Shown here piece by piece: positions 25-628 of a DNA stretch of 628 nucleotides. The first letter of the stretch is position 1; each line of letters starts with the position of its first letter. This stretch comes from a phage, in sequence record DQ006814.1, one strand, 5' to 3'. Under the pieces are notes generated by a model. That model did not search any database. It was not told where the DNA came from and worked only from the letters and a program-made list of their open reading frames with translations. Position numbers and translations under genes: made by a program.

Positions 25-628
25 ATGCCTAAATTACCACGTGGTCTGCGTTTCGGAGCCGATAATGAAATTCTTAATGATTTTCAAGAGCTCTGGTTTC
101 CAGATCTCTTTATCGAATCTTCCGACACGCATCCGTGGTACACACTGAAAGGTCGTGTGTTGAACGCTCACATGGACGACTACTTACCTAATGTAAGTGG
201 TCGCCAGGTAAGGCGCACTCCACATCGTGTTACTGTTCCGATTGCCTCTACAGGCCTTCGTCCAGTGACAACTGTTCAGTATGATCCTGCAGCACTATCG
301 TTCTTGTTGAACGTTCGTGTTGATTGGGATTTCGGTAATGGCGACAGTGCGGACCTTGTCATTAAAGACTTTGTGTTCCGCACCTTTGCACCTAAGGATT
401 TCGATTTCTCGAATTCCTTAGCTCCTCGTTATACCCAGGCCTTCTCCGCCTTTAATGCCAAATATGGCGTTATGATCGGTGAAGGGCTCGAGACTATAAA
501 ATATCTCGGGCTTTTACTGCGCAGACTGCGTGAGGGTTACCGTGCTGTTAAGCGCGGCGATTTACGTGCTCTTCGCAGGGTTATCCAGTCTTACCATAAA
601 GGTAGGTGGAAACCGGCTACTGCTGGTA
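25..628 (+). CDS. A2: A2 maturation (attachment) protein, which in Qbeta is also the single-gene lysis protein (MurA inhibitor). N-terminal 201 codons only; 3'-truncated by the window edge (last full codon ends at 627).
   Basis: ATG at 25 preceded by a Shine-Dalgarno element. The frame is open for 201 codons to the window end while the other frames are interrupted by stops. The translation MPKLPRGLRFGADNEILNDFQELWFPDLFIESSDTHPWYTLKGRVLNAHMDDYLPNVSGRQVRRTPHRVTVPIASTGLRPVTTVQYDPAALSFLLNVRVDWDFGNGDSADLVIKDFVFRTFAPKDFDFSNSLAPRYTQAFSAFNAKYGVMIGEGLETIKYLGLLLRRLREGYRAVKRGDLRALRRVIQSYHKGRWKPATAG matches my recollection of the Qbeta A2 N-terminus at most positions. Most nucleotide differences from recalled Qbeta appear to fall at synonymous third-codon positions. 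Confidence 0.93.
   Translation, partial: MPKLPRGLRFGADNEILNDFQELWFPDLFIESSDTHPWYTLKGRVLNAHMDDYLPNVSGRQVRRTPHRVTVPIASTGLRPVTTVQYDPAALSFLLNVRVDWDFGNGDSADLVIKDFVFRTFAPKDFDFSNSLAPRYTQAFSAFNAKYGVMIGEGLETIKYLGLLLRRLREGYRAVKRGDLRALRRVIQSYHKGRWKPATAG
140..160 (+). other. Candidate RNA stem-loop in the genomic plus strand: stem ACACAC (140-145) paired with GUGUGU (155-160), 9-nt loop UGAAAGGUC
   Basis: Perfect 6-bp inverted repeat read directly from the sequence. The same stem, with a one-base loop difference, is present in Qbeta as I recall it. Levivirus genomes are highly structured, but no folding energy was computed. Confidence 0.35.

Follow-up and report, generated by a model that had tools for sequence, protein, structure and literature searches.

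The window analysed here, the whole 628-nucleotide stretch of record DQ006814.1, is very probably cDNA of the plus-strand genome of a natural Qubevirus durum strain belonging to the BR12/VK sublineage. It would run from the last part of the 5' UTR through the ribosome-binding site of A2 to codon 201 of the 420 in this gene, with the functions of A2 and an RNA closure of its ribosome-binding site as in Qbeta. Sequence identity, purifying selection, genomic position and RNA pairing with covariation were observed directly, and pilus binding, MurA inhibition and translational control would be expected of this strain by analogy with the Qbeta literature. Both the start of the A2 gene and the translational-control RNA domain are already known features. 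For A2, the structure, the partners and the mechanism have been worked out before, and the window contributes one further natural allele. This is of little importance beyond cataloguing; its modest value is that it documents natural variation in the protein-antibiotic surface of A2.

On the plus strand, the ATG at 25-27 begins frame 1, which stays open through nucleotide 627 for 201 codons and contains no stop, and each of the remaining five frames carries 7-17 stops. Because this ORF (the A2 maturation/lysis protein, codons 1-201, 25-627) continues past the end of the window, it was missing from the program-made list of ORFs. Its translation begins MPKLPRGLRFGADNEILNDFQELWF and aligns to residues 1-201 of the 420-aa Qbeta A2. 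Searching PDB sequences with phmmer returned Qbeta A2 at 93.5% identity and E = 3.8e-129 (5VLZ, 5VM7 and 7LHD, with 5MNT matched too). The Pfam family PF03863 (Phage_mat-A) scored 144.3 bits against a gathering cut-off of 25, with residues 35-201 occupying profile positions 19-216 of 446, and PHROG 4286 was matched at E 9e-50. The 31 records found by megablast were all Qbeta/Qubevirus at 91-97% nucleotide identity, the match always lying under an annotated maturation/A2 CDS. The A2 frame is under purifying selection, with dN/dS values of 0.11-0.19 (Nei-Gojobori, against seven relatives). These protein, profile and nucleotide matches bear out the preliminary description, which had read 25-627 as the N-terminal half of a Qbeta-type A2; its "roughly first half" of about 420 aa also agrees with the 201 of 420 residues (48%) found here. 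The single-sequence AlphaFold2 model of the 201-aa fragment was unusable (mean pLDDT 41.8, pTM 0.36). One label attached to this family looks like an annotation error: PHROG 4286 and the mat gene of NC_001890 give the ssRNA-phage maturation protein the name 'head maturation protease', a protease activity unsupported by the papers on these phages cited here.

Alignment to full genomes places the window at about nt 37-665 of the 4.2-kb Qubevirus durum genomes, with the ATG aligned to the annotated A2 start at nt 61/62. A2 is the first cistron, directly after the 5' UTR and with its own Shine-Dalgarno (SD) sequence. The C-terminal 219 residues lie outside the window, and an intact full-length protein would be expected from relatives with near-identical N-termini (BR12, VK and an environmental contig), all of which encode a 420-aa A2. 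Towards its C-terminus, the complete Qbeta-type protein carries an alpha-region that binds genomic RNA and the internal coat dimer.

The nearest named strain is BR12 (FJ483842, A2 ACT66737.1), at 96.7% nucleotide and 97.5% amino-acid identity, followed by VK (FJ483843), at 95.1% over the window and 96.5%, respectively. The environmental contig IMGVR_UViG_3300019216_000421 (Ga0179939_1057709) is 96.5% identical over the 603 coding nucleotides and 97.0% identical in amino acids; it was the single environmental relative found in protein-guided scans of IMG/VR and the JGI metagenomes. This contig is 2,890 nt long, matches the window at its positions 53-655 and encodes an intact 420-aa A2 with changes of its own at Y49, H98 and A175. 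BR12, VK and the contig share with the window M50 (I in VK), S58, D110, K114, V117, D125, V149 and K192, and the contig additionally has Y53 and V97; each of the three differs from the window by 5-7 amino acids. Laboratory Qbeta and its evolved derivatives were about 92% identical to the window at the nucleotide level by megablast. Neither the phage collection nor IMG/VR nor the JGI metagenomes yielded an identical sequence. When the 201-aa fragment was searched against a collection of 5.8 billion protein clusters, 670 word candidates arose and none reached E<=1e-3; that collection appears to contain no Qbeta-like RNA phages, a blind spot for RNA-phage windows. Among the records of related phages, LC710219 carries at 1335-1736 a coat CDS labelled 'lysis protein A2', which looks like an annotation error.

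The preliminary description had proposed an alignment to Qbeta A2. Run over the part of the protein within the window, this alignment was ungapped across residues 1-201 and gave 13 replacements relative to the laboratory Qbeta protein: L50M, R53Y, G58S, S76T, A97V, N110D, N114K, L117V, E125D, V133A, T149V, N192K and K194R. Twelve of these recur elsewhere among natural members of the species, 11 of them in named isolates; Y53 and V97 were found elsewhere only in the uncultured environmental contig. E125D (codon 125, nt 397-399) is a common natural polymorphism, seen in BR12, VK, FrMerlot, GIII_C and FrBurgundy. Across the 13 close sequences, the window alone has K194R, a conservative change (A605G), and it alone lacks one base of the 5' UTR. 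The suggestion that substitutions in this region could affect host range or MurA sensitivity thus gained no support, since 12 of the 13 are natural in the same species and the remaining one is K to R; altered host range or MurA sensitivity for this allele is speculation.

The private changes raise the question of whether the sequence could be a laboratory-evolved, chimeric or error-containing assembly, with the UTR deletion and K194R as artefacts. The lack of an identical record in the three collections named above would be compatible with such an origin, as would the single-base deletion itself, which is unmatched in 12/12 close relatives compared. Against this, the window departs from BR12 and from the contig at sites scattered over its length, and the changes are mostly synonymous and dominated by transitions (18/20 and 21/21 in these two comparisons), as expected for natural RNA-phage divergence. 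Moreover, the reading frame is unbroken, base pairs are kept where positions have changed, and laboratory-evolved Qbeta lines cluster with laboratory Qbeta at about 92% identity rather than with the window. An artefactual origin is therefore improbable, although the UTR deletion taken singly could be either genuine or due to a sequencing error.

In the Qbeta virion, A2 is the only maturation protein and is present at one copy; it binds both the pilus and the genomic RNA, the F-pilus being bound by its exposed N-terminal beta-region (PMC12856241, PMC10610835). A gene dedicated to lysis is lacking in Qbeta and SP, and lysis results from the binding of A2 to MurA that is closed and loaded with UDP-GlcNAc (PMC12856241, PMC10610835). 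On each of these points (copy number, pilus and genomic RNA binding, MurA inhibition and the missing lysis gene) the preliminary description agrees with published work (PMC12856241, PMC10610835, bioRxiv 10.1101/2023.10.16.562596), and its remark that this is established biology, not a new system, holds equally, since the cited literature already states the same A2 biology. In the present strain, the beta-region of A2 would likewise bind closed, UDP-GlcNAc-loaded MurA, which would block the first committed step of peptidoglycan synthesis and so lead to cell lysis. Given the 93-97% identity to characterised or isolated strains, we infer that this allele would act through MurA in lysis. The annotation of related genomes lists just four products, and no alternative-frame ORF that might represent a separate lysis gene was conserved within the window, the rest of the genome being outside it.

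In the passages of PMC12856241 that cite Cui et al. 2017, most MurA contacts of A2 are placed within residues 30-120, and the shortest fragment reported as lytic consists of residues 1-180. The sufficiency of residues 1-180 for lysis is debated, and C-terminal deletions of A2 have been found to abolish lysis despite an intact beta-region (PMC12856241). When these literature boundaries are mapped through the ungapped Qbeta A2 alignment, the reported contact segment (codons 30-120) falls at 112-384 and the shortest reported lytic fragment (codons 1-180) at 25-564 on the plus strand; both are complete in the window and free of indels. "First half" is hence right as a length and can be refined, as the window includes the whole reported lytic module and not an arbitrary half.

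It might nevertheless be argued that this A2 homologue serves in maturation and adsorption while being a weak or inactive inhibitor of MurA, in the manner of 'Q', the chronic, poorly lysing putative ancestor of laboratory Qbeta, with lysis being slow or coming from elsewhere. R53Y is a non-conservative change and adjoins D52, presumably a 'por' suppressor site; we take the por positions of A2 to be L28P, D52N and E125G, with L138Q as the counterpart in MurA. Eight of the 13 differences from laboratory Qbeta (L50M, R53Y, G58S, S76T, A97V, N110D, N114K and L117V) lie in residues 30-120, and modern Qbeta has been proposed to have arisen by mutations raising the affinity of A2 for MurA (bioRxiv 10.1101/2023.10.16.562596). 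However, all differences but K194R recur in other natural sequences, and for 11 of the 13 these include named strains (BR12, VK, FrSangria, BZ1 and others) whose host is given as E. coli and which, we assume, were isolated by plaque assay. R53Y and A97V also occur in the contig encoding a full 420-aa A2, and dN/dS is about 0.13 throughout. An enrichment of substitutions in the MurA-contact segment was considered and rejected, since the 8 observed against 5.9 expected by length are not a meaningful excess, which likewise speaks against a weakened inhibitor. Weak or lost MurA inhibition is accordingly quite unlikely, and a MurA-inhibiting A2 of the Qbeta type is the reading that we retain.

Besides the identity of the protein, which it had right, the preliminary description left unmentioned the RNA layer of these same nucleotides: a ribosome-binding site together with the long-range pairing that would close it. 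Positions 1-24 on the plus strand are the 3' part of the 5' UTR, equivalent to nt 37-61 of Qbeta and BR12, as judged by alignment with BR12, VK, Qbeta, others and the environmental contig. The start of the window reads TATTTACTGAGTATAAGAGGACAT-ATG. The missing base is the C of TATTTCACTGAG (here TATTT-ACTGAG), between T5 and A6 at position -20; it is present in 12/12 close relatives, and in the BR12 fold it is unpaired, in the linker just 5' of the SD-closing helix. The A2 SD sequence itself, AAGAGGA, can be read at 15-21 (plus strand), with its core GAGGA at 17-21 ending 3 nt before the ATG, and none of G17, A18, G19 and G20 varies across 14 Qubevirus durum sequences.

Indeed, the RNA of the window is strongly structured. 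Its MFE is -251.6 kcal/mol compared with -178 +/- 5 for dinucleotide shuffles (z = -14.8), this fold being computed without the first 36 nt of the genome. In both the MFE structure and the partition function, a long-range helix sequesters the SD sequence: its 5' strand at 7-21 pairs with a 3' strand at 423-438 (UCCUC-G-UUAUAC-C-CAG, within A2 codons 133-138), both on the plus strand. All 14 pairs have probabilities of at least 0.85 (0.85-1.0), 12 of them exceeding 0.98, and the duplex alone contributes -16.6 kcal/mol. The flank of the start codon at 22-29 (CAU.UGCC) is predicted to pair with GGUAAUG at 334-340, again on the plus strand, with probabilities of 0.84-0.97. This second pairing also appears in the folds of BR12, Qbeta, BZ1, M11 and MX1; it rests on folding only, with no compensatory pairs in the 14-sequence alignment.

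Covariation was examined across the 14 aligned Qubevirus durum sequences. Although 92.8% of the cells were paired, this figure is biased, as the window itself supplied the fold. Two-sided changes of pairs are more telling: 28 were counted, compared with 7-12 when partners were slid by 1-3 columns, and 0/500 shuffles reached 28. In the SD helix, 4 of the 14 pairs show compensatory changes in M11/MX1. The closure was also reproduced in 10 other genomes folded independently, and in M11, MX1, SP, FI, NL95, HB-P22, BR1 and HB-P24, folded in this way, the SD/AUG region of each genome finds its partner at +390 to +418 even though the sequences of the SD regions differ. A series of 5' fragments of the window, which is equilibrium modelling and not kinetics, gave an SD unpaired probability of 0.20-0.73 for lengths up to 420 nt and of 0.03-0.07 once 423-438 was present. 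No Rfam family matched the Qbeta 5' domain at E<=1.

Through these two pairings, the SD and start flank (nt 7-29) would join 423-438 and 334-340 in a closed domain of some 400 nt. With the SD and start flank paired about 400 nt downstream, efficient initiation of A2 would be expected only as long as the downstream strand is either still to be made or unfolded, and a ribosome-binding site closed in this manner may keep A2 scarce and set the timing of lysis. The closure itself is known: passages of PMC3561173 and PMC2978339 describe the model of Beekwilder et al. 1996, in which long-range pairing closes the A2 ribosome-binding site, and present this as a means of keeping A2 translation low. Single-base changes that raise A2 production have since been reported to overcome MurA-based resistance (bioRxiv 10.1101/2023.10.16.562596). 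The closure predicted here fits both the Beekwilder 1996 model and these A2-raising changes. In the predicted fold, nt 399, the base changed in E125D, is unpaired between two helices that stack beside the SD-closing helix, among them helix 392-398/415-421. A laboratory suppressor mutation that increases A2 output presumably also maps to codon 125.

The constraints on protein and RNA overlap in this part of the genome. Among 13 Qbeta-like sequences, synonymous diversity per degenerate codon is 0.05-0.08 in codons 1-40 (nt 25-144) and codons 151-170 (nt 475-534), and 0.27-0.35 in codons 41-70, i.e. 4-6 times higher. The low values at 25-144 and 475-534 suggest an extra constraint at the RNA level. 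That the first of them instead marks a second, overlapping gene, such as one for an embedded single-gene lysis protein of the kind known from other ssRNA phages, is hardly credible: the contrast between codons 1-40 and 41-70 and two alternative-frame ORFs open in 12/12 Qbeta-like strains (GTG 41-148, 35 aa, and GTG 317-421, 34 aa) would be in keeping with it, but the former ORF is broken by stops in M11 and MX1, both are without a start codon there, the latter gathers many amino-acid changes among Qbeta strains, neither has an upstream SD sequence or a hydrophobic transmembrane stretch when read from the sequence, and RNA pairing with covariation accounts for the constraint. Both ORFs were rejected as genes, as they are not conserved in M11/MX1. 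Since the overlapping ORFs are broken or start-less in these two genomes, RNA structure better explains the uneven synonymous diversity.

Several replacements can be followed at the level of base pairs. A predicted 11-bp hairpin at 177-203 (plus strand; codons 51-60, from the fold and the alignment) holds the codons of both R53Y and G58S. The synonymous change of L54 from CUA to UUA and the G58S change from GGC to AGU together convert pair 184:196 from C-G to U-A, a type found in four sequences (the window, BR12, VK and FrSangria). R53Y, a two-base change from CGC to UAC, keeps both of its pairs through wobble (C-G to U-G and G-U to A-U), K194R (A605G) turns a U-A pair into U-G, and A97V affects an unpaired position in the fold. 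The exact pattern of the Y53 hairpin had no match in IMG/VR.

It is tempting to speculate, though we consider it rather doubtful, that the RNA fold gating A2 translation channels replacements in the MurA-contact segment, and that alleles of the Y53/V97 type could shift the timing of lysis through either MurA affinity or the rate of A2 translation. If true, such alleles would be the natural counterpart of laboratory suppressor mutations that raise A2 production, and a translation-controlling RNA fold would limit the amino-acid changes acceptable to a tiny RNA genome. This coupling of lysis-domain replacements to the maintenance of base pairs in natural strains is the only angle that is mildly novel here.

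To conclude, the window is closest in kind to Qbeta, whose A2 is known from a crystal structure (5MNT), from virions (5VLZ/7LHD) and in complex with MurA (5VM7). The two are alike in start context, 5' UTR and long-range closure of the ribosome-binding site, and the window differs by its 13 substitutions, about 8% nucleotide divergence and one base fewer in the 5' UTR. Further away, the A-proteins of M11 and MX1, divergent members of Qubevirus durum, show about 61-64% amino-acid identity over the window region, and the A2 proteins of SP, FI and NL95 (group IV, Qubevirus faecium) 43-48%, the latter proteins being longer, up to 450 aa. All five share with the window the gene position, the Pfam family and a closure running from the SD sequence to about +400, achieved from different sequence. 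Similarity to maturation proteins of the MS2/GA type was not detected by tblastn at E<=1e-5. The A protein of these phages (Emesvirus) belongs to the same Pfam family, has the same two-domain architecture and, with one copy in each virion, likewise binds the F-pilus and genomic RNA (PMC12856241). Unlike Qbeta, however, MS2/GA-type phages encode lysis in a gene of its own, L, and it is not brought about by their maturation protein (PMC12856241).
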